NCBI GenBank assembly: GCA_944393195.1 | Contig: CALXZG010000002.1 | Coordinates: forward strand, 33,646 to 97,645 | From: an uncultured Alphaproteobacteria bacterium | Lineage (GTDB): Bacteria; Pseudomonadota; Alphaproteobacteria; CAAHEQ01; UBA3637 | Length of the DNA: 64,000 nucleotides | Direction: 5' to 3' | Shown here: one piece after another, positions 21,732 to 60,300 of the stretch | How positions within the stretch are numbered: the first letter of the stretch is position 1 | How the letters are laid out: each line of letters starts with the position of its first letter | Position numbers and translations under genes: made by a program | Notes under the pieces: model-generated | The model's input: the letters and a program-made list of their open reading frames with translations, nothing else | The model's database searches: none | Told to the model about the DNA's origin: nothing

Positions 21732-21899
21732 AGTGTAACAATTTAATGTTCCTTTTTTTGTTATACTTTTTGCACCTTACACGACTTTTAACTAAATGAA
21801 CAGGAACCCTTTATAATATAAATATTTTCTTCTTGCTTTACCTTTCTTTTTGTGATACATAATTTTATAACATTTTAAGGAACATTAAATTGTTACACT
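21732..21899. repeat. perfect 23-bp inverted repeats (21732-21754 and 21877-21899) flanking a 122-bp AT-rich segment; part of the gene-less copy of the pilin-family 5' module
   Basis: agtgtaacaatttaatgttcctt and aaggaacattaaattgttacact are exact reverse complements. The enclosed segment is homologous to 51436-51533, which is upstream of gene 51585. Confidence 0.85.
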
Positions 21900-22050
21900 T
21901 CATTTGACATCTGTTTGATTAATAATCTATATGTGAAGTGCCCCAAAATCGGAAAAAAGTAAAATAGGGACAGATTCGCGGATTAATGCCGTGATACCGT
22001 TTTTATTGTATGGCGATATGTAAAAAAATCCCCGCGCCGGCGGGGATAAT
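21900..22050 (-). promoter_or_regulatory. conserved 5' module of the pilin-like family (orphan copy, minus orientation)
   Basis: The reverse complement aligns with 58183-58312 and with the reverse complement of 42392-42505 (tttttacatatcgcc ... atcaaacagatgtcaaatgaa). It is preceded by the hairpin terminator of ORF 22085-22480. Confidence 0.7.
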
Positions 22051-26094: not shown

Positions 26095-27483
26095 GTGGTT
26101 AAAAGGATGTTTTATTTTTTTTCTTGTCTTTTTCGGAAAATAGGATATACTAAAATTATGTCCACTATTTTTAAAAAGGTTTCACATATGATGCATAAAA
26201 CGGCTTGTCAAAATGGGATGGCGGCGGGTTCCCGTCATTTATTTAATCGAAAAGAGCGGTGCGGCAAGGTATTTTTTACCAATCGGGATGCTATGCCGGT
26301 GGCTTTTGTTCAAGTTTCCCTGCGTGATTTAAAGGGTGGGCCGGCATGTTTGCCGGTGCCAGCTTCCGTTGTTCGGTCGTATATGATGAAACTGGCGCAA
26401 AACGGGGCTTTGACGGAAGCGGGATTTTTACCGAGTGAGGTTGAAGCGGCGCGGTGTCGCGGAATTGTCCCGACCGGGTATCAGGTGGAACAAATTGTGC
26501 CGATGGGGTGTGGCGCTCGGCCGACATTGAATAATATTTGTTTAATGGAGTCGGGGTTACAGACGTATTTGACACGTCATTTATGGCGATTGTTACATCG
26601 GGATTTAGTGGCGGAAAAGGCCGCCTGTGAGAAAAAAGGCCGACCGTATGAGCAAATTTCCGTCGGATTATCGGGATTTCGGGCGGTGATGCGGGTCACG
26701 GATTGGACGCGGGTATTGGATAAGCCTTTGTTACGGCGGGCGCGGTTAGTGGAAGAGCGGTTAAAGGTACAACAATTAAAAGCAATGCCTTTGGCGGTTG
26801 TGGCAACGGCCGACGGGGTTTTGTTGGCGCATCCGGCTTTTATGTCCATGAATGCCCAAGACGGATATCTGAAAAATGCGACGGGAATGGTTCCGGCGGT
26901 TGTGAATGTTCGCTTGGCTTCGGCGCATGAGCGGCAAGCGATTAAAGCGGAATACGGACAGGTTCGGCGGGATATTATTCGGGCTTTCGCCGCGCGGGGA
27001 CAACTGCCGGAAATTCGGCCGAATAAACAACGGGTTATTGCCCAAACAGGGTGGTTGCCGGATCGGTATCCGTACACATGTCATCACATTGTACCGCGGG
27101 CTTTGGGCGGTAGCAATGAAGCGGGAAATGTGTGTTGGTTGCCGGCGGCGGAGCATGCGGATTTACATGTCATTGTCAACAAATATCAGCACGAATTAAA
27201 AACGCGGTATGCCGATTTGGCAACACGGGGGCTGGCTTATTTGGTGTTACCGATTCCGGCTTCATTCCAAGGGCCACAATTGCGGATCATATCGCCGGTG
27301 GATCAGCGGTTGGTTTCAATTGCGGAATTGGCAGATGCGGTTTTTGCCTGTCATCCGGCGGTTAATATCCGAAAGAAGAAAGGACACTTTGCGTCTCAGG
27401 CGGTTAAACGGCGGTTATTGGTGGCCAAATATCAACGTCGTGTTCGGCGGGGCGGTATGGATGTATCGCGTGTTCATATATAG
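26095..27483 (+). CDS. basic protein with two HNH-like units (one intact HNH motif)
   Basis: The start is uncertain (ATG at 26158 or 26188 is possible). The intact motif YPYTCHHIVPRALGGSNEAGNVCWLPAAEHADLH lies at about 27067-27168. An earlier unit (VPTGYQVEQIVPMGCG...) has lost the His residues. The protein is Arg-rich. Confidence 0.65.
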   Translation: MVKRMFYFFSCLFRKIGYTKIMSTIFKKVSHMMHKTACQNGMAAGSRHLFNRKERCGKVFFTNRDAMPVAFVQVSLRDLKGGPACLPVPASVVRSYMMKLAQNGALTEAGFLPSEVEAARCRGIVPTGYQVEQIVPMGCGARPTLNNICLMESGLQTYLTRHLWRLLHRDLVAEKAACEKKGRPYEQISVGLSGFRAVMRVTDWTRVLDKPLLRRARLVEERLKVQQLKAMPLAVVATADGVLLAHPAFMSMNAQDGYLKNATGMVPAVVNVRLASAHERQAIKAEYGQVRRDIIRAFAARGQLPEIRPNKQRVIAQTGWLPDRYPYTCHHIVPRALGGSNEAGNVCWLPAAEHADLHVIVNKYQHELKTRYADLATRGLAYLVLPIPASFQGPQLRIISPVDQRLVSIAELADAVFACHPAVNIRKKKGHFASQAVKRRLLVAKYQRRVRRGGMDVSRVHI

Positions 27484-41490: not shown

Positions 41491-42357
41491 TCATCGACAG
41501 AGGGCAAATAGTAGTAGTCGACGTCCCAAACGGTTGAACCCGATCGCACCTGAACTACTACCCTGTATATAATACGAACTACATCCACTCAACTTCGTAC
41601 TTGTCCAATAAGGCTTACCTGTCGTGTGTGCCCATCCCGAACAGCTACCATAATAACTGTTTGCCTTAGCCGCCGCCAATTCTTCCGCCGTACACCCGTC
41701 CGTTAGCGGTGCTAAACTCTTCCCAAGTGCTTGACAGAAGTTCTCTGCTGCATGATAGGACATAGATCCTGTTGATGTTGTGCATGTTGTTCCGTTAATC
41801 TCTACTGTTGCAGTACTCATATTTGTGCACGTCCCAATCACCACATCACAACTATAAGTATTTTTACAATATTGATTATCCCCCGTACAATCATCATTTG
41901 TCATACATTTATTTGTTCCTAATGCGGATACACAGGTACCTATACCGGAACTATATTGACACTTCTCGTCTTTTCCACAACATTTGTCACCGCATGTAAC
42001 GCCATCCGGACAATAGACGCAATAACGAGGATCGTATCCCCCGATTTGAGCACCTGTACATCTCTCACATGTATCCTCTATATCTCCCGTATGCGTTTCG
42101 ACTGGATTTCCTTCTGTTGGACAAGCAATACAGGACGAAGACGCATATTTATTATAAAACTCACCTTCTTCACATTCCGGATAAAAATCTGTCACACATT
42201 CCCCTGTTGATAATCGATATTCATTCTCCCCACACTCTTGTTCTTCCGACTCACCATCTCCATCCCCTGAAATTTGGGAGCCGACCAACGCATTATGGAA
42301 AGCAAATAATATCTCGTTATCCTCTTGCTTTGTTTTCCCTTTTATGATACACAACAT
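41491..42357 (-). pseudogene. 5'-truncated member of the pilin-like/Cys-rich/lectin-like family (candidate silent cassette)
   Basis: The ORF begins inside the family 5' module. It joins the family alignment at EILFAFHNAL (EMLFAFANTL in the intact genes). It therefore lacks the RBS, the prepilin leader and the whole N-domain. The Cys-rich and YHAAENFC...ALCR parts are intact. Confidence 0.7.
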
Positions 42358-42596
42358 CTATAACAAAAAAATGTACATTAAATTGTTACACTTCATTTGA
42401 CATCTGTTTGATTAATAATCTATATGTGAACTTCCCCAAAATCAAAAAAAGTAAAATAGGGATAGATTCGCGGACTAATGCCGTGAATAATGTTTTTGTG
42501 TGGTGATATGTAAAAACGCCCTGTTATCACAAAAACTTTCCTGCCCGACAAAAAAGCGTCCCGAAACGGAACGCTTTCTTAACATATCGGCTACGT
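42358..42596 (-). promoter_or_regulatory. family 5' module including the recA terminator; inverted copy of 58005-58346
   Basis: The reverse complement aligns with the region downstream of rpsT apart from a roughly 110-nt repeat insertion there. It contains the palindromic site gtgtaacaatttaatgtacatttttttgttatag (42358-42391). Confidence 0.75.
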
Positions 42597-43631
42597 CTAT
42601 TCGCCATCCGCCGGTACGCCCTCATCATTATCCAACATTTGTTGTGATAAATCCTTGGCATCGTTGCGAATAATTGCCTCAACTTCATCGGCCATAGCCG
42701 GATGCGCCTTTAAATAAGCCCGCGCCGTTTCTCGCCCTTGCCCGATTCGCTCCCCACGGCAAGAAAACCAAGCACCGGCCTTTTCCACAACGCCTGCTTT
42801 AATCCCTAAATCCAACAATTCACCGGTTTTGGAAATTCCTTCACCGTACAGGATATCAAAGTCAACCGTTTTAAACGGCGGTGCAACCTTATTCTTAACA
42901 ATTTTAACCCGCGTCTGATTCCCGATCGTATTGTCCCGATCCTTAATAGCCCCGATCCGCCGAATATCCAATCGAACGGAAGCATAGAATTTTAACGCAT
43001 TACCGCCCGTCGTTGTTTCCGGACTACCGAACATAACCCCTAATTTCATCCGAATCTGATTGATGAAAATGACCAAGGTATTCGCACGCGCCACCGACGC
43101 CGTAATTTTACGCAAAGCCTGACTCATCAGCCGCGCCTGTAACCCCATGTGAGAATCCCCCATTTCGCCTTCCAATTCGGCTTTCGGAACCAACGCCGCC
43201 ACCGAATCCACAACCAAAACATCCAACGTTCCCGACCGTACTAACGTATCCGCGATTTCCAACGCCTGTTCCCCCGTATCCGGCTGAGAAATCAATAAAT
43301 CATCAATCTTAACCCCCAACTTTTTGGCATACGACGGATCCATGGCATGTTCAGCATCGATATAAGCACATACCCCGCCTTTTTTCTGAGCCTCTGCCAC
43401 CACATGCAAAGCCAACGTTGTTTTTCCCGAGCTTTCCGGCCCATAGATTTCCACAATCCGTCCGCGTGGCAGACCACCGATCCCCAAAGCCATATCCAAC
43501 CCCAAAGATCCCGTTGAAATAGCCGGAATTTCCATCGCGTTTTCCTGTTGCCCCAAGCGCATAATGGATCCCTTGCCAAACGCCCGTTCAATCTGTGCCA
43601 AAGCGGCTTCAAGTGCTTTTTCTTTTTCCAT
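42597..43631 (-). CDS. recA: recombinase RecA
   Basis: 344 aa. Contains Walker [10 protein letters not shown] and canonical RecA sequence throughout. Confidence 0.98.
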
Positions 43632-45235: not shown

Positions 45236-45832
45236 ATGGCAAAACATCAACATGAATCAAAGCCGGCCGCCGAAACCACGGCCGACAAAGATAAACAAAC
45301 ATCCGCGCCGACCGAAACACCGGCGCAACCCGAACCGAATCCGGCCGAGGAAATCACACACTTAACCGAAGAAGTCGCGCGTTGGAAAGACACCGCGGCC
45401 CGGGCCATGGCCGAAATGGAAAATCTCCGGAAAAGAACCCGGATTGATATCGAAAAAGCGACGCGCTACGCCAACGCTTCTTTTGCCAAAGAATTATTGC
45501 CCGTCGCCGATTGCCTGGAACGTGCCGCCGATTGCGCTCGGCAAGAGTTAGCTCAGGAAAAAGCAACCGGCAAAACCGATTGCACAACCGTTGAAAACCT
45601 ACTGACCGGCGTCGATATGACCTATAAACAATTACAGGACGCCTTGAAAAAACAAGGCATCGAACGCATGGATTGCCTTGATCGGATTTTTGATCCCAAC
45701 TTGCATAAGGTGATTCAGGAAGTCGATACCCCCGATAAACCGGCCGGAACGATTGTCCAAATTCTGCAACCGGGATACACCATCGGCGGCGATCGCGTCC
45801 TGCGCGAAGCAATGGTTGTCGTCGCGAAATAA
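45236..45832 (+). CDS. grpE: nucleotide exchange factor GrpE
   Basis: 198 aa with a GrpE coiled-coil and beta domain. A terminator lies at 45851-45877. Confidence 0.93.
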   Translation: MAKHQHESKPAAETTADKDKQTSAPTETPAQPEPNPAEEITHLTEEVARWKDTAARAMAEMENLRKRTRIDIEKATRYANASFAKELLPVADCLERAADCARQELAQEKATGKTDCTTVENLLTGVDMTYKQLQDALKKQGIERMDCLDRIFDPNLHKVIQEVDTPDKPAGTIVQILQPGYTIGGDRVLREAMVVVAK

Positions 45833-45850
45833 CCGATATCTGATGCATCA

Positions 45851-45877
45851 AGGGGGCGTTTCCGCCCCCTTTTTTTT
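45851..45877 (+). terminator. grpE rho-independent terminator
   Basis: GGGGGCG-TTTC-CGCCCCC followed by T8. Confidence 0.8.
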
Positions 45878-46280
45878 CGTCACCCCTTATTATTAGTCCA
45901 TCATCCCCTATAATTCTACGTCATCCCCGACCCCATAAGTAATCCGTCACCCCCGACTTGATCGGGGGTCTCATGACCATCTTACCCCCTTTTAAATTCC
46001 AACATCCGCTTGCCGGCGGAGACTCCCGCTGCCTTGGCGCGCGGTGTTTCATTGCCTTACGCGAAAAAACAATTCACCGGATTGTTTTTTCTTGCGCGGT
46101 ATCCTTGCGTAAGCGAGGATCTCATGACACGCACTCCATCCCTTTATAAAAAACCCGCACGGCCACCCCCCGCGGGGAAAGGCGGGGCGGCCATAATGAC
46201 CTCTTTGCCCGTGTCGGGGCTCTTAAATGCCCCGACACAAATAATTAAATAGGTAAAGGAGATATTAAAAAATCAGAACC
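45878..46280 (-). repeat. 3' flank plus repeat array of the family, inverted copy of 59742-60255
   Basis: The reverse complement is colinear with the region after gene 58482-59741: ttttttaatatctcctttacctatttaattatttgtgtcggggc, then the roughly 130-nt unit gatcctcgcttacgcaagg...ggcaagcggatgttggaat, then catgagacccccgatcaagtcggggg and GATGACGG modules. Confidence 0.8.
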
Positions 46281-46550
46281 TTAGCGACACAGGGCGTTGA
46301 CGGCGCCGCCGCTCCAACCGACAGACCCGACCGCGCCTGACCAGGGATATACATAATACGAAGCACATCCACTCAATTTTGTTGCTGTCCAATAATGGTT
46401 AGAAAGACTACTATTCAACCATCCACTACAACTACCATAATAATTATTTGCCTTAACTGTTGCTAATTCTTCCGCCGTACACCCGTCTGTCACCGATACC
46501 AAACTCTTCCCGAGGGCTTGACAGAAATTAACTGCTGCATGATACGGCAT
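46281..46550 (-). pseudogene. isolated C-terminal (lectin-like) fragment of the family
   Basis: Encodes PYHAAVNFCQALGKSLVSVTDGCTAEELATVKANNYYGSCSGW...GAVGSVGWSGGAVNALCR. Family homology stops abruptly at about 46550. Confidence 0.8.
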
Positions 46551-47090
46551 ATAATTCGTTGGTTCCGGGGGAGAGGGGAGAAGGTAATGACGAATCCGAA
46601 GTTGAAGTGTGTGAAGAGGGTGAATATCGGTTATCGACAGGAGAGTGTGTGATAGATTCACATCCGGAATGTGGTGATGGAGAGTTTTATAATAAATGGA
46701 TATCTTCTTCCTGTATTGCGTGTCCAACGGAAGGAAATCCGGTCGAAATTAGTGTATCGGATGTGGAAGATAGTTGTGAAAAATGTGCGGGGGCGCAGTA
46801 TGGTGGGTATTATCCTAATTATTGCGTCTATTGTCCATCCGGTGTTGTGTGTGGTGATCAATGTTGTGGGGAAGGACAAATGTGTCAATATAGTTCCGGT
46901 ACCTATACCTGTGTATCGGAATTAGGTGACGGCGAATGTTGGACAAATGATGATTGTGCCGGAGCCAATCAATATTGTCAAAATGGTGGAAGTTGTGAAG
47001 TGACGATTGGGACGTGTGAAACGATCAGTAGTACAGCTGTGATAATTAACGGAAAAGAGTATACGGCTTCAACGGATTATGTATCTTACC
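46551..47090 (+). pseudogene. isolated middle (Cys-rich) fragment of the family on the opposite strand
   Basis: Encodes NSLVPGERGEGNDESEVEVCEEGEYRLSTGECV...EYTASTDYVSYQAA. It abuts the minus-strand C-terminal fragment head-to-head at 46550/46551. It ends at the YHAA-equivalent point, where it joins a repeat unit through the shared string ggcagcgg. Confidence 0.8.
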
Positions 47091-47232
47091 AGGCAGCGGG
47101 AGTCGCCGCCGGCAAGCGGATGTTGGAATTGGAATGGAGTAAGATGGTCATGAGACCCCCGATCAAGTCGGGGATGACGGATTACTTATGGGGTCGGGGA
47201 TGACGGACTAATGATAAGGGAATGGCGGAAAA
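47091..47232 (+). repeat. distal repeat block (ggcagcgggagtcgccgccggcaagcggatgttggaattgga...catgagacccccgatcaagtcggggatgacgg...)
   Basis: Same orientation as 60117-60230 and inverted relative to 45905-46025. Confidence 0.8.
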
Positions 47233-47310
47233 CAAAATGGGGATGGGGGAAGATGTGAGATAAAAAAATCCCCCGGGGAGGCCGGGGGATGGAGAAAATG
47301 ACAGAAAACG

Positions 47311-47766
47311 TTAGTCTTCTTTGTCGTTGTTTTGAATCAACGTGTAGATTGCGTCGGCATCTTTGGCATGGCGCAGGTCGGCGGCGACGGTTTCGTCCCG
47401 CAACAGGCGCGACAAGCGAGCCAATGCTTTCAAATGATCGGCGCCGGCTTCTTCCGGAACCAGCAACAAAAACACGAGGTCGACGGGTTTATCGTCAACG
47501 GATTCAAAATCGACGGGTGTTGTCCGCACAAATGCACAGAAAATTTTATTCAGCGCATTCAAACGGGTATGCGGTAATGCCACGCCATGGCCGATACCGG
47601 TTGTCCCGAGGCGTTCGCGTTCAATCAAGGCATCCAAGATGAGGCGTTCGTCCAGTCCCGTTTTTTGAGCGGCCAAGCCAGCCAGCGTTTCCAGCAATTG
47701 TTTTTTACTACCAACGGACGCATCGCAAATAACCGCGTCTTTGGGTAAAATATCGATAATTTTCAT
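47311..47766 (-). CDS. ptsN: PTS IIA-Ntr regulatory protein
   Basis: 151 aa. Contains the GIGHGVALPH active-site His motif. A terminator hairpin plus T7 lies at 47266-47292 on the minus strand. Confidence 0.9.
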   Translation of the reverse strand: MKIIDILPKDAVICDASVGSKKQLLETLAGLAAQKTGLDERLILDALIERERLGTTGIGHGVALPHTRLNALNKIFCAFVRTTPVDFESVDDKPVDLVFLLLVPEEAGADHLKALARLSRLLRDETVAADLRHAKDADAIYTLIQNNDKED

Positions 47767-51269: not shown

Positions 51270-51380
51270 TTTTAACAGCCTCCATCGAGGCTGTTTTTTT
51301 ATGGAAAATCCGGTAAATTGAGACTATTTTTGAAAAAAATGCCTTTTCGGAGAAAGGGATGTTTTTGATATGGTTGATAA

Positions 51381-51584
51381 ATCAAACAGATGTCAAATGA
51401 AGTGTAACAATTTAATGTTCATTAAAATGTTATAAAATTATGTATCACAAAAGTGAAAACAAAGCAAGAAGAAAATATTTATATTATAAAGAGTTCCTGT
51501 TCATTTGGTTAAAAGTCATGTAAGGTGCAAAAAGTATAACAAAAAAGGGAACATTTTTTTGTTATAGTTGAAAAGGAGCGATAA
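51381..51584 (+). promoter_or_regulatory. 5' control region of pilin-like gene A
   Basis: Conserved block atcaaacagatgtcaaatgaagtgtaacaatttaatgt (possible ATGTCA-17-TAATGT promoter). Palindromic site 1 lies at 51402-51435 and palindromic site 2 at 51534-51567, the latter directly before the AAAGGAG RBS. Confidence 0.5.
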
Positions 51585-52994
51585 ATGACTGAAACAAAAA
51601 ACAAAAACGGGAAAAGTGGTGTGTATCAAAATAGTGATTTAGGGGCATCGTGTGTGTGTCATAAGACCCCCGATCAGGTCGGGGATGACGGTTTAACAGT
51701 AGGGAGTGCGTGTTCAAAGATCCCCGCTTTCGCAGGGATGACGGGTAGTAACCGCGGGGAGCGGGGACGGAGCATGGTTGAGATGTTGGGCGTTCTGGCG
51801 GTCATGGGCGTATTGTCGATCGGCGGTGTGGCCGGGTATCGGTATGCGATCGATAAAATGAATGCGAATGACATTATCAATGAAGTGAAAAAAAGAGCCG
51901 TGACGGCGAGTCAACAACGCATCTTGGGACACGATATTAATTTATCGGAATACGGGGATAATGGTCGGATTAAGGGAATTCATGCCGTTACAGCGACAAA
52001 CGATTATGCGGGGGATAAAGGGTTCTTTGCGTTGACGGTATCAAATATACCGCAACGGGTATGCGATGACATTCTGAAACAGGATTGGAATATGCCGGTG
52101 GAAACAGCGGTCGGAGGTGTTGTGGTTGATGATGATACAGCCTGCGCCGCCGGGGATAATGAAATGTTGTTTGCGTTTGCGAATACGTTGGACAGCTCTC
52201 TGGTTCCGGGAGAAGGGGGAGAAGATGACGGGGATGAAGAGGAAGTACAGGAATGCGCCGAGGGTGAATATCGGTTATCGACAGGGGAATGTGTGACGGA
52301 TTCACATCCGGAATGTGGTGATGGGGAGTTTTATAATGGACTCACGGATTCTTGTACAGCCTGTCCGACGGAAGGAAATCCTGTCCATATTTATTCGTCG
52401 GATATGGAAGATACGTGTGAAAAATGTACGGGGTCGCGGTATGGTGGACCTTATCCCAGCTATTGTGTCTATTGTCCGGATGGTGTTACCTGTGGTGATC
52501 AATGTTGTGGGGAAGACGAAATGTGTCAACGCGATACAAGTTCTTGGCCATATACATTTACCTGTGTCTCTACATTAGGGGAAGGAGAATGTTTGACGAA
52601 TGATGATTGTGTAGATAATCAATATTGTCGGAATAGTTATGGTTGTGAAGTGACGGTTGGGACATGTACGGATATTAGTAGTACGCCGGTAGAGATTAAC
52701 GGAACAGAATACACAGCGTCAACGGGTTCTATGCTGTATCATGCGGCGGAGAATTTCTGTGATGCGCTTGGGAAGCGTTTAGCACCGGTGACAGACGGAT
52801 GTACGGCGGAAGAATTGGCAGCGGTTAAAGCAAATGGTTCAGGTAGTTGTTCGGGATGGGCACAGACGACGGGTGAGCGTTATTGGACAGCAACCAAATT
52901 AAGCGGATGCGCTTCGTATTATGTATGGAGTAGTAGTTCAGGCGCGGTCGGGTCTGTCGGTTGGAACGGCGGCAACTACGCCCTGTGTCGCTAA
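51585..52994 (+). CDS. modular type-IV-pilin-like protein with Cys-rich repeats and lectin-like C-terminal module (copy A; leader expanded by a repeat insertion)
   Basis: 469 aa. The class III signal-like core G-RSMVEMLGVLAVMGVLSIGGVAGY lies at aa 61-85. It is followed by a conserved head domain, an acidic linker, a region with about 25 Cys, and a C-terminal YHAAENFC...W...ALCR. Confidence 0.8.
   Translation: MTETKNKNGKSGVYQNSDLGASCVCHKTPDQVGDDGLTVGSACSKIPAFAGMTGSNRGERGRSMVEMLGVLAVMGVLSIGGVAGYRYAIDKMNANDIINEVKKRAVTASQQRILGHDINLSEYGDNGRIKGIHAVTATNDYAGDKGFFALTVSNIPQRVCDDILKQDWNMPVETAVGGVVVDDDTACAAGDNEMLFAFANTLDSSLVPGEGGEDDGDEEEVQECAEGEYRLSTGECVTDSHPECGDGEFYNGLTDSCTACPTEGNPVHIYSSDMEDTCEKCTGSRYGGPYPSYCVYCPDGVTCGDQCCGEDEMCQRDTSSWPYTFTCVSTLGEGECLTNDDCVDNQYCRNSYGCEVTVGTCTDISSTPVEINGTEYTASTGSMLYHAAENFCDALGKRLAPVTDGCTAEELAAVKANGSGSCSGWAQTTGERYWTATKLSGCASYYVWSSSSGAVGSVGWNGGNYALCR
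51612..51770 (+). repeat. 159-nt in-frame insertion of palindromic mini-repeats inside the leader of gene A
   Basis: Absent from copy B (MTEIKMENG-LSMVE). It contains agacccccgatcaggtcggggatgacgg and agatccccgctttcgcagggatgacgg, both found in intergenic copies elsewhere in the window. Confidence 0.8.
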
Positions 52995-57989: not shown

Positions 57990-58010
57990 GCTTGACGATT
58001 TTTTTAGAAA

Positions 58011-58038
58011 AGCGTTCCGTTTCGGGACGCTTTTTTTT
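58011..58038 (+). terminator. rpsT terminator, sequence-identical to the recA terminator (42550-42577, minus strand)
   Basis: AGCGTTCCG-TTT-CGGGACGCT followed by T8. This is the first element of the duplicated family 5' module. Confidence 0.8.
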
Positions 58039-58481
58039 GTTGGGCAGGAAAGTTTTTGTGATAACAGGGCGTTGTTATTTTTCCGTCATCCCTGCGCAGG
58101 CGGGGATTTTTGGACGCACAACCACACCTTTAAAAGACCCCCGATCAGGTCGGGGGTGACAGGGTACTTGTGGATCGGGGATTTTTTTACATATCGCCAT
58201 ACAATAGAAACGGTATTCACGGCATTAGTCCGTGAATCTGTCCCTATTTTACTTTTTTCTGATTTTGGGTCACTCCCAATCTAAATGATTTATCAAACAG
58301 ATGTCAAATGAAGTGTAACAATTTAATGTACCTTAAAATGTTACAGTTTTTATAACATAATCAGGAATGCGATGCAAGTCCTTTTTTATTAAGAATTAAT
58401 CGGTTATCGATTTGTCATTTTTTGTCCAAACTGTAACACAAAAGGGTACATTTTTGTGTTACAGTTCGAAAGGAGTATTAA
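58039..58481 (+). promoter_or_regulatory. 5' control region of pilin-like gene B
   Basis: Conserved module 58183-58346, with a roughly 110-nt mini-repeat insertion at 58072-58182. Site 1 lies at 58313-58346. Site 2, ctgtaacacaaaagggtacatttttgtgttacag, lies at 58431-58464 (13-bp arms), followed by the AAAGGAG RBS. Confidence 0.5.
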
Positions 58482-59741
58482 ATGACTGAAATCAAAATGG
58501 AAAATGGTCTGAGTATGGTTGAGATGTTGGGTGTTCTGGCGGTGGCGGGTGTCCTGTCGATTGGCGGTGTGGCCGGATATCGGTATGCGATTGATAAAAT
58601 GAATGCGAATGACATTATCAACGAAGTGCGGAAACGGGCCGTGACGGCAAGTCAACAACGCATCTTGGGACACGATATTAATTTATCGGAATACGGGGAT
58701 AATGGCCGGATTAAAGGAATTCATGCCGTTACAGCGACAAACGATTATGCTGGGGATAAAGGGTTCTTTGCGTTAACGGTATCAGCAGTCCCGCAACGGG
58801 TATGTGATGACATCCTGAAACAGGATTGGGCAATGCCGGTAGAAACCGCCGTCGGTGGTGTTGTGGTCGATGATGATACCGCCTGCGCCGAAGGGGATAA
58901 TGAGATGTTGTTTGCGTTTGCGAATACGTTGGATAATTCGTTGGTCCCGGGAGAAGGGGGAGGAGAGAACGGAGATGAATCGGAAGTACAGGAATGCGCC
59001 GAGGGCGAATATTGGTCATCAAGTTTAGAAACATGTGTGACAGACCCGCATACGGAGTGCGCGGATGGGGAGTTTTATAATGGATATACAAACTCCTGTA
59101 CGGCTTGTCCAACAGATGGAAATGCCGTTCCAAATGATTCATTAGATATGGAAGATACGTGTGAAAAATGCGTAGGGTCGCGGTATGGTGGATCTCATCC
59201 CGGCTATTGTGTCTATTGTCCGGATGGCGTTACCTGTGGCGATCAATGTTGTGGCGAAGGACAAATGTGTCAACGTAGTGGTCCTTATCCGTATACATTT
59301 ACCTGTGTCTCTGCATTAGGGACAAATGAATGTATGACGAATGATGATTGTACGGGAGCAAATCAATATTGCCAGAATGATTCTGGTTGTAGTGCGACAA
59401 ATGGGACGTGTCAAACGATCAGTAGTACGACGGTGACGATTAACGAAAAAACATACACAGCATCGACAGATCGTATGTCGTATCATGCGGCAGAGAACTT
59501 CTGTGATGCGCTTGGGAAAAAATTAGCACCGGTGACAGACGGGTGTACATCGGAAGAATTGGCAGCGGTTAAAGCAAACAATTATTATGGCAGTTGCACA
59601 GGATGGGCACACACGACGGGTAGGTATTATTGGACAAGTACGAAGATAAGCGGGTGTCATTCGTATTATGTAAGCAATAGCAGTTCAGGCGCGGTCGGGT
59701 CTGTCCATCCGTTCGTCGGCTACCACGCCCTTTGTCGCTAA
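58482..59741 (+). CDS. modular type-IV-pilin-like protein with Cys-rich repeats and lectin-like C-terminal module (copy B, canonical)
   Basis: 419 aa. The N-terminus MTEIKMENG-LSMVEMLGVLAVAGVLSIGGVAGYRY has Gly at -1, Glu at +5 and a hydrophobic helix. The downstream architecture matches copy A. Confidence 0.85.
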   Translation: MTEIKMENGLSMVEMLGVLAVAGVLSIGGVAGYRYAIDKMNANDIINEVRKRAVTASQQRILGHDINLSEYGDNGRIKGIHAVTATNDYAGDKGFFALTVSAVPQRVCDDILKQDWAMPVETAVGGVVVDDDTACAEGDNEMLFAFANTLDNSLVPGEGGGENGDESEVQECAEGEYWSSSLETCVTDPHTECADGEFYNGYTNSCTACPTDGNAVPNDSLDMEDTCEKCVGSRYGGSHPGYCVYCPDGVTCGDQCCGEGQMCQRSGPYPYTFTCVSALGTNECMTNDDCTGANQYCQNDSGCSATNGTCQTISSTTVTINEKTYTASTDRMSYHAAENFCDALGKKLAPVTDGCTSEELAAVKANNYYGSCTGWAHTTGRYYWTSTKISGCHSYYVSNSSSGAVGSVHPFVGYHALCR

Positions 59742-60300
59742 GGTTCCCGCTTTTTTAATATCTCCTTTACCTATTTAATTATTTGTGTCGGGGCATTTAA
59801 GAGCCCCGACACGGGCAAAGAGGTCATTATGGCCGCCCCCGCTTTCCCCGCGGGGGTGGCCGTGCGCGTTTTTTATAAAGGGATGGAGTGCGTGTCATGA
59901 GATCCTCGGGTCAAGCCCAAGGATGACAGTTTTATAATAAGGGATTGTGTTAAAAGATTCCCGCTTGCGCGGGAATGACGAGATATTTATATGGGATGAC
60001 GTAGGAGGGGAGGAGTGAGGTGGTTGAAAGATCCTCGCTTACGCAAGGATACCGCGCAAGAAAAAACAATCCGGTGAATTGTTTTTTCGCGTAAGGCAAT
60101 GAAACACCTCGCGCCAAGGCAGCGGAAGTCGCCGTCGGCAAGCGGATGTTGGAATTGGAAAGGTGTGTGCGTCATGAGACCCCCGATCAAGTCGGGGATG
60201 ACGGATTACTTATGGGGTCGGGGATGACGGATTACTTATGGGGTCGGGGATGACGGGGTATTTATAGGGGGGGGTGACGGAGGCAGGGAACGAGGTGTGG
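59742..60300 (+). repeat. 3' flank and dense repeat array, including 2.3 tandem copies of a 26-nt unit at 60197-60256
   Basis: Contains the hairpin gtgtcggggc...gccccgacac, the roughly 130-nt unit at 60030-60160, catgagacccccgatcaagtcggggatgacgg, and tandem gatgacggattacttatggggtcggg units. Confidence 0.8.

Follow-up and report, generated by a model that had tools for sequence, protein, structure and literature searches.

The interval between grpE and ptsN (positions 45878-47232) in a 64,000-nucleotide stretch of contig CALXZG010000002.1 from an uncultured Alphaproteobacteria bacterium (assembly GCA_944393195.1), hereinafter the window, contains portions of two members of a family of multicopy type-IV-pilin-like proteins with a lectin-like tip that is found in uncultured gut Alphaproteobacteria. 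The complete family protein, of about 420 amino acids (aa), is predicted to combine a pilin domain at the N-terminus and a Cys-rich middle with an end resembling C-type lectins; in the interval between grpE and ptsN, a middle and a C-terminal fragment lie head-to-head on opposite strands. With moderate confidence, this locus is best interpreted as the fixed remains of two oppositely oriented pilin-like paralogs that were shortened by deletion, not as a segment that flips. According to the original prediction for this DNA, the locus would be the frozen or reversible product of an inversion of the segment 46551-47090. The observation itself, namely the scrambled, head-to-head arrangement, is confirmed, and the interpretation is partly supported: the rearrangement is frozen and inversions between family copies do occur nearby, but the reversible flip of 46551-47090 is not supported.

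The locus is bounded by two intrinsic-terminator-like hairpins, one of grpE (45236-45832, plus strand, PF01025), at 45850-45871 on the plus strand (a 9-pair stem followed by a T run), and the other of ptsN (47311-47766, minus strand), at 47268-47290 on the minus strand. A blastn comparison of 45800-47300 with the 64-kb window identifies 46114-46551 as the reverse complement of 59474-59908, i.e., the C-terminal end and 3' flank of the full-length family gene g59k (82% identity, E-value 5e-118), and 46551-47082 as similar to 58933-59478 of the same gene in forward orientation (73%, E-value 4e-81). The minus-strand fragment, 46281-46556 (NYMPYHAAVNFC...NALCR-stop), encodes the lectin-like end and is the remnant of a gene located downstream of grpE, denoted Y, without the start codon, upstream region, N-terminal domain or middle domain. 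The plus-strand fragment, 46553-47090, encodes the Cys-rich middle and is the remnant of a gene located upstream of ptsN, denoted Z. Both fragments are open reading frames (ORFs), (N)YMPYHAAVNFC...NALCR-stop and NSLVPGERGEG...STDYVSYQAA, respectively, and both lack a start codon, a leader peptide and the family upstream region. A tblastn search with g59k detects no N-terminal domain between 45.8 and 47.3 kb. Thus, blastn and the reading frames bear out the lectin-like end that had been predicted at 46281-46550 and the Cys-rich middle predicted at 46551-47090, with the end of the former moved to 46556 and the start of the latter to 46553.

The left junction, 46552/46553, lies 4 codons upstream of the YHAA motif, and the two fragments overlap there by the 4-nt palindrome AATT (46553-46556) that is common to both, so that the minus strand reads AAT TAT ATG CCG TAT CAT (NYMPYH) and the plus strand reads AAT TCG TTG GTT (NSLV). 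The right junction, at 47087-47107, reads TACC-AGGCAGCGG-GAGTCGCC, with AGGCAGCGG at 47091-47099 on the plus strand; the string ggcagcgg that had been noticed at this junction is present at 47092-47099. The two breakpoints had been assigned to one and the same YHAA codon, which is not the case: in family coordinates, they are separated by about 25 nt or less, and the codons differ. As a separate observation, a sigma-70-like match (TTAACT, 16 nt, TATAAT) at 46528-46555 spans the head-to-head junction, by which it was created, and reads towards the middle fragment; it is a consensus match only, which by itself does not indicate function, with no start codon and leader peptide downstream.

Both fragments are followed by 3' flanks typical of the family. 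On the minus strand, the proximal flank (flank1, 46035-46280) is 89-98% identical to the g59k flank at 59742-60116, which carries an extra insertion of about 120 nt relative to flank1, and is succeeded by the distal flank (flank2, 45904-46034). On the plus strand, the middle fragment passes directly into another copy of flank2 (47091-47221). The two flank2 copies are the 131-nt arms of an inverted repeat (132 alignment columns, 91% identity, E-value 2e-46), which is recovered also by a separate repeat-finding procedure (I17 and I23), and the inverted distal blocks reported at 45905-46025 and 47100-47215 are thereby confirmed with somewhat wider limits. In addition, 45919-46122 is the inverse of 60029-60229 (93%), and the first 39 nt of flank2 occur in the window in exactly 3 copies, compared to 0 expected by chance. 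The flanks include a hairpin resembling repetitive extragenic palindromes (REP), at 45951-45967 in the left arm and at 47157-47173 in the right one, and units that recur at other family loci. Overall, the 3' flanks are 89-98% identical (g59k 59742-60265 versus 45919-46280), compared to 72-82% for the coding parts. The region 45878-46280, described in the original prediction as the family 3' flank with a repeat array, is indeed the family flank but includes no array: a Tandem Repeats Finder run on 45800-47320 detects nothing beyond a trivial 9-nt repeat.

Contigs of the same species from many samples were identified by exact-protein lookups of grpE, ptsN, hpf and uppS. Throughout the locus, the window is colinear with contigs from ERZ28613992 (99.9% identical), ERZ16268138 and ERZ16268270, and an identical 42-nt junction is present, in the same orientation, in these three assemblies and in ERZ24773524. 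Given that the four assemblies come from different samples and show 0.1-5% sequence difference, the head-to-head structure is not an assembly artefact, and assembly error, which had been named as the finding that would overturn the prediction, is ruled out as the cause.

The contig L017 (ERZ24773524) shares the head-to-head junction with the window but carries a longer plus-strand cassette. Its middle fragment differs from that of the window by 5 mismatches in 538 nt and continues on the plus strand as ...STDYVSYQAAENFCRALGKK...YYALCR-stop, after which come about 290 nt of the cassette's own 3' flank and then CCAAGGCAGCGG joined to GAGTCGCC (also given as ...CGCGCCAAGGCAGCGG joined to GAGTCGCC); from GAGTCGCC through ptsN, L017 is identical to the window. 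Two direct copies of the 9-mer AGGCAGCGG, at 873 and 1446 of the flipped L017 segment, i.e., 573 bp apart, bracket the Z C-terminal domain and proximal flank, with one located within the YQAA codons and its counterpart within the 3' flank, whereas the window has a single copy. Therefore the right breakpoint is the scar of a direct-repeat deletion inside the plus-strand cassette. The mismatch between L017 and the window is 0.9% in the middle and 0% over flank2 and ptsN. Because the plus-strand cassette of L017 is colinear, each of the inverted blocks is the own 3' flank of the respective remnant, and the YQAA codons belong to the plus-strand cassette; the proposal that 46551-47090 is a flipped piece of a single minus-strand cassette is not supported by this evidence.

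An intact counterpart of the Y remnant and a colinear, longer counterpart of the Z remnant are found in other contigs. L031 (ERZ16268158) and L032 (ERZ16268159) have the same gene order as the window, namely uppS, a copy similar to g41k (the partial family copy downstream of recA), recA, rdgB, rph and grpE, followed after grpE by an intact, full-length family gene on the minus strand (445 aa in L031), and L005 contains a contiguous family copy of at least 381 aa in the same place. L121, from the same sample as L031, shows a plus-strand middle and C-terminal domain, colinear with each other and adjoining ptsN. Thus, the search for an unscrambled version, suggested with the original prediction, recovered an intact family gene after grpE but no protein that joins this exact middle to this C-terminus: when an artificial protein combining the two was compared to 5.8 billion protein clusters, identity above 72% was observed only with the truncated ORF itself. 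Two exact-pattern scans of Joint Genome Institute metagenomes, for the junction and for the middle fragment, produced no match.

The Y remnant has changed further in sister strains. The end that includes LCR and the stop codon was lost by a 13-nt deletion in L015 and L029 and by a deletion of about 43 nt in L030. In the distal half of the Y remnant, L017 and the window differ by a block replacement that keeps the reading frame, with 20.7% mismatch compared to 0.9% in the adjacent middle. Similarly, g41k differs by 5.6% between strains, compared to 0.1-1.5% for neighbouring genes. The middle fragment is not unusually conserved, with 0.6-0.9% mismatch, like the neighbour genes.

These observations are most simply accommodated by the following succession of events. 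Y (minus strand, downstream of grpE) and Z (plus strand, upstream of ptsN) would have been two paralogs facing away from each other. In the first step, one deletion would have eliminated the upstream regions and N-terminal domains of both genes along with the Y middle, joining the Y C-terminal end to the start of the Z middle through the AATT overlap and producing the state seen in L017. The second step would be the 573-bp deletion between the direct AGGCAGCGG 9-mers, which took the Z C-terminal domain and proximal flank and led to the window state; this step is shown by the sequence comparison with L017, with loss as the presumed direction. The third step, observed in sister strains, comprises the further small deletions and the segmental replacement in the Y remnant. 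The resulting arrangement is fixed, without switching. The divergent orientation of Y and Z and the break in GC skew at 46 kb are probably the outcome of earlier inversions, caused by homologous recombination between family copies in inverted orientation; this is supported by the alternative arrangement in two samples described below. By this route as well as by the larger inversion considered below, the moved unit is not the 540-bp middle segment.

Several points weigh against this scheme. All comparison contigs are short-read metagenome assemblies. No contig links intact Y and intact Z in divergent orientation (L031 ends in the Y leader or upstream region, and L121 starts inside the Z middle), and so the first step is one that we infer from two contigs without a physical link between them. 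The same junction could also arise by inversion if the endpoints were inside two copies in direct orientation, the arrangement of L014 and L005. The direction of the second step could in principle be the reverse if L017 had been repaired by gene conversion from another copy. Finally, pure decay predicts neither the uninterrupted frames of both remnants nor two breakpoints separated by about 25 nt at most, a closeness that is estimated to have a chance of roughly 5%.

Larger rearrangements around the locus are evident from conspecific assemblies. In ERZ24773541 (L004 and L014) and ERZ24773521 (L005, 100% identical to L004/L014 over the overlap), the recA-grpE block is inverted relative to ptsN. 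In all three contigs, the ptsN side is joined to the recA side via flank2, the proximal flank (99% identical to that of L017), a REP element, a leader stub and the upstream region; in this arrangement, gene Z is cut down to the upstream region, leader and flank. In L014 and L016, from two samples, 51386 is joined to 21946, and in L024 and L025, g59k is missing beside trxB, its place being taken by a ccrM-like methyltransferase gene. The GC skew is positive at 16-31 kb, negative at 32-45.9 kb and positive again from 46 kb. Given the inverted recA-grpE block in two samples and the sign change of the skew at about 46 kb, larger inversions between family copies do occur here. As side observations, the synteny breaks between conspecific assemblies (21946, 42353, 51386 and 60300; loci L014, L016, L004-L007, L024 and L025) fall at family copies or their upstream regions, homology changes at 42353, and the block at 32-46 kb, with the scrambled locus at its right edge, appears to run against the orientation of its replichore.

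One could imagine that the head-to-head junction itself marks one end of a chromosomal inversion that encompassed no less than the recA-grpE block, i.e., at least 4.5 kb rather than 540 bp, with breakpoints in two directly oriented genes, Y at the border of the middle and C-terminal domains and Z at the border of the N-terminal and middle domains. Two such breakpoints give exactly a minus-strand C-terminal fragment abutting a plus-strand middle, L014 and L005 indeed carry intact Y and the Z remnant in direct orientation around recA-grpE, with that block inverted relative to ptsN, and the skew is negative at 32-45.9 kb between positive flanks, with the sign change at the locus. However, there is no reciprocal junction beside recA, where a middle would be expected to meet an N-terminal domain and upstream region in inverted orientation but where g41k instead is colinear with the remaining upstream region, and the left edge of the skewed block, at about 31.5 kb, contains no family sequence. 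Moreover, L031 has an intact Y in the orientation of the window, and therefore this orientation predates the truncation, which leaves such an inversion an improbable origin of the junction. A programmed reversible switch of the Moraxella Piv or R64 shufflon type that flips the middle, or an assembly artefact, is highly improbable. It is true that flipping 46553-47090 would place the middle and the C-terminal end in series on the minus strand and that inverted blocks flank the locus, but these blocks do not adjoin the left end of the middle segment, and intact genes match as inverted sites at the borders of the middle domain in only 12 of 24 positions (the YHAA and YQAA strings of the window match at about 9 of 13). 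The locus, bounded as it is by the grpE and ptsN terminators, adjoins neither a constant N-terminal segment nor a family upstream region. No recombinase gene is present in the 64 kb, recA (42597-43631) being the sole recombination gene; Pfam annotation of the checked ORFs of at least 120 aa in the window yields housekeeping genes and family copies, with a few ORFs lacking a Pfam match. At the level of assemblies, the middle is seen in one orientation only, in the window and the four others. Thus, none of the four defining features of Piv and shufflon systems, namely a nearby recombinase, an adjacent constant segment with a promoter, conserved inverted sites and the occurrence of both orientations, is observed.

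A different view of the same fragments is that they and g41k (41491-42357, minus strand) are promoterless silent donor cassettes that are copied by RecA-dependent gene conversion into full-length genes, varying the pilus tip, so that the head-to-head layout is incidental; we regard this as a realistic although not a likely possibility. The 5'-truncated copies without the constant N-terminal domain (46281-46556 on the minus strand, 46553-47090 on the plus strand and 41491-42357 on the minus strand) share the window with full-length genes that have upstream regions, 3 of 3 partial copies keep open frames, and other strains hold 5'-truncated ORFs with similar start points (e.g., P0033, P0037 and P0043). 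The higher conservation of the 3' flank than of the coding parts, noted above for g59k and the remnant, resembles the conserved repeat downstream of pil loci, and the in-frame block swap in the distal half of the Y remnant and the divergence of g41k, relative to their surroundings, are also in line with donor activity. Conversely, no full-length protein on record is more than 72% identical to this middle or C-terminus, no recent conversion tracts between the remnants and the full-length genes are detected in the window, and the longest identical runs between a remnant and a full gene in the window are 18-28 nt, no longer than those between full genes. Among the few dozen contigs inspected for transfer of cassette tracts, block replacement is seen inside the Y remnant, and none from the remnants into any full-length gene or protein. 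The loss of the Y-remnant 3' end in sister strains and of the whole Z C-terminal domain in the window lineage looks like decay, and no canonical G-quadruplex motif lies near any family locus (of the 3 sites with four runs of at least 3 G and loops of 1-7 nt that a pattern scan of the window identified, 0 are near family loci). A broader proposal, which we consider tentative and rather unlikely, is that gut Alphaproteobacteria run a pilE/pilS-like variation of a lectin-tipped modular type IV pilin, in which dispersed partial copies without the upstream region, among them the two remnants and g41k, donate sequence while the shared 3' flank and REP-like elements guide RecA-dependent exchange, and that this exchange also reshuffles the origin-proximal chromosome, with copies located beside recA.

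The interpretation of the locus as two decayed remnants finds further parallels in common genome processes. The 9-bp direct repeats at the 573-bp deletion, the 4-nt overlap and the small deletions in sister strains are those of ordinary microhomology deletions, and, as in rearrangement between dispersed repeats, the synteny breaks here coincide with repeat copies. Unlike ordinary gene remnants, the fragments keep open frames and belong to a family that shows block-wise exchange.

Besides the two remnants, the window contains three other members of the family. The full-length g59k (58482-59741, plus strand) is the reference copy, with a prepilin-like leader, pilin domain, Cys-rich middle and lectin-like end; its 3' flank (59742-60265, plus strand), which consists of flank1, flank2 and 26-nt repeat units, serves as the template for the flanks at 45904-46280 and 47091-47221. 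The second full-length gene, g52k (51585-52994, plus strand), has REP-like elements in frame inside the leader peptide. Both g52k and g59k possess the upstream region, a ribosome-binding site and a leader. The third partial copy, g41k, consists of the middle and C-terminal domains, its N-terminal pilin domain and proximal upstream region having been deleted, so that only the distal upstream region (42358-42596) is left, beside recA. Two further full-length copies, P0007 and P0025, are encoded on the same 116-kb contig.

The full-length proteins contain a prepilin-type leader, ...NG/LSMVEMLGVLAVAGVLS (...NG/LSMVEMLGVLAVAGVLSIGG as seen directly in g59k), where the slash marks the G at -1, with E at +5, and the string G/RSMVEML is invariant across 120 homologues. 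The family thus shows the features of a class III signal peptide, i.e., a short leader, G at -1, E at +5 and a hydrophobic helix; scores of the hidden Markov models for the pilin leader are below threshold (PF07963, N_methyl, E-value 0.12; TIGR02532, E-value 0.36). An AlphaFold model of a g59k-type protein, built with 28 homologues (mean predicted local distance difference test score 77 over the whole model), includes a 49-residue helix (residues 13-61) packed on a beta-sheet (strands 81-147), followed by an acidic disordered linker, a Cys-rich beta-rich middle and a C-terminal alpha/beta domain. For the N-terminal part, Foldseek identifies type IVb pilins (Vibrio cholerae toxin-coregulated pilus (TCP) and enterotoxigenic Escherichia coli) as the best PDB matches, with the probability of 1.00, target template modelling (TM) scores of 0.46-0.47 and E-values of 6e-3 to 9e-3. 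The model thus predicts, with moderate confidence, that the family adopts a type IV pilin fold, with a long N-terminal helix on an antiparallel beta-sheet. For the C-terminal module, comparison of the sequence profile to PDB sequences yields weak matches to C-type lectin-like domains (CTLDs; E-values 0.17-0.7), Foldseek detects many CTLD matches (probability 0.9-1.0, target TM scores 0.4-0.57, E-values 0.02-0.15), and there is no match in Pfam. Neither pilus machinery nor a prepilin peptidase gene is found within the 64-kb window.

Altogether, 320 homologues are on record, almost all of them nameless, and at least 542 family loci are confirmed in the reference metagenome-assembled genomes (MAGs) that were scanned, with many copies per genome. 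Nearly all of the host MAGs bear the label of uncultured Alphaproteobacteria and originate from the guts of humans, rabbits and ruminants. No contigs are returned for g59k (P0001) when its exact protein sequence is looked up, and a scan of reference genomes with g59k alone finds no confirmed relative; an alignment-based scan, for which 80 loci were kept, with the window's own species not among these, detects the family in other species only at 63% identity or below. A literature search for the family in gut Alphaproteobacteria returned nothing relevant, and the family, along with its role as a rearrangement hotspot, appears to be undescribed in the literature searched.

Judged by analogy, the closest functional counterpart is the pilE/pilS system of Neisseria, in which antigenic variation of pilin draws on silent cassettes (PMC2784325). 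Like that system, the family described here is of the type-IV-pilin type and combines full-length loci with 5'-truncated copies lacking the upstream region and constant N-terminus, has a conserved block 3' of full-length and partial copies, shows mosaic, block-wise differences between strains and has copies on both strands. Unlike the Neisseria system, the family lacks sequence similarity to Neisseria pilins; the protein, at about 420 aa, has two extra modules, the Cys-rich middle and the C-type-lectin-like end; there are several full-length copies, not one expression site; instead of being clustered, the family members are scattered among housekeeping genes; and there is no canonical G-quadruplex near the copies and no detected transfer from these remnants.

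The flip model of the original prediction has its counterparts in two inversion systems. In the pilV shufflon of R64, inversion is mediated by Rci. In Moraxella bovis and Moraxella lacunata, the pilin gene is inverted by Piv (PMC4073114). The resemblance lies in the oppositely oriented segments coding for pilin C-termini, such that inversion would change the segment that is read; at the present locus, however, no Piv-, Rci- or Hin-type recombinase is encoded in the 64 kb, an adjacent constant segment and conserved short inverted sites are missing, a single orientation is seen, and one of the breakpoints is a direct-repeat deletion. With respect to protein architecture, the modular type IV pilins PilB and PilC of Streptococcus sanguinis (PMC8179133, PMC9934059) similarly fuse a pilin module with a prepilin leader to extra C-terminal modules, one of them lectin-like, and this shared layout suggests that the family might be an adhesive pilus subunit. 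The differences are that the extra modules here are a modelled C-type-lectin-like fold and a Cys-rich beta-rich middle, that the pilin module is similar to those of the type IVb group, such as TcpA, and that the family is highly multicopy and hypervariable, with no pilus machinery in the window.

The scrambled locus itself thus amounts to ordinary genome wear and is a worked example of an apparent invertible cassette that, after conspecific comparison, resolves into two remnants and a microhomology deletion. The context is more interesting: an undescribed, highly multicopy pilin-like family, with several full-length and partial copies in 64 kb, the copies of which differ in blocks and mark most of the synteny breaks between strains here. 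If the partial copies were active donors, this would be a system of antigenic or adhesin variation in poorly known gut commensals.

Several features of the family loci can be added. REP-like palindromes (CCCCGATCAGGTCGGGG, translated as PDQVGDDG, and another one translated as IPAFAGMT) occur in frame in the prepilin leader of g52k (51585-51790), and such leader elements, located between MTEIK..NG and G/RSMVEML, are present also in P0009, P0011, P0013, P0016, P0024, P0025 and P0031; in many family members, the leader gains about 50 or more residues from them. All 5 hairpin copies in the window are at family loci. The family upstream regions (21732-21994, 42357-42596, 51368-51572 and 57996-58481) are 81-96% conserved and bear palindromes of the form TGTAACA-N12/13-TGTTACA, which are operator-like by sequence; the region at 21736-21994 is an orphan that is not followed by a family gene. 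In the 3' flank of g59k (60171-60265), there are about 3 tandem copies of a 26-nt G-run unit (GGGGTCGGGGATGACGGATTACTTAT), compared to 1 or 2 units in the remnant flanks, and no canonical G-quadruplex with short loops is formed by these units.

The window belongs to a core region of the chromosome, close to the replication origin, and includes an origin-like gidB-parA-parB cluster at 16.9-19.2 kb. The recA gene is directly upstream of a family upstream region, and one family locus lies immediately downstream of recA (41491-42596), represented by the truncated g41k in the window and by the gene Z stub in L014; this proximity may be a coincidence. Two adjacent large ORFs, 26095-27483 and 27493-29265, have no Pfam family in the annotation of the neighbouring genes, and both contain the HNH-nuclease-like motif YPYTCHH(I/L)VP...GG.N...N.

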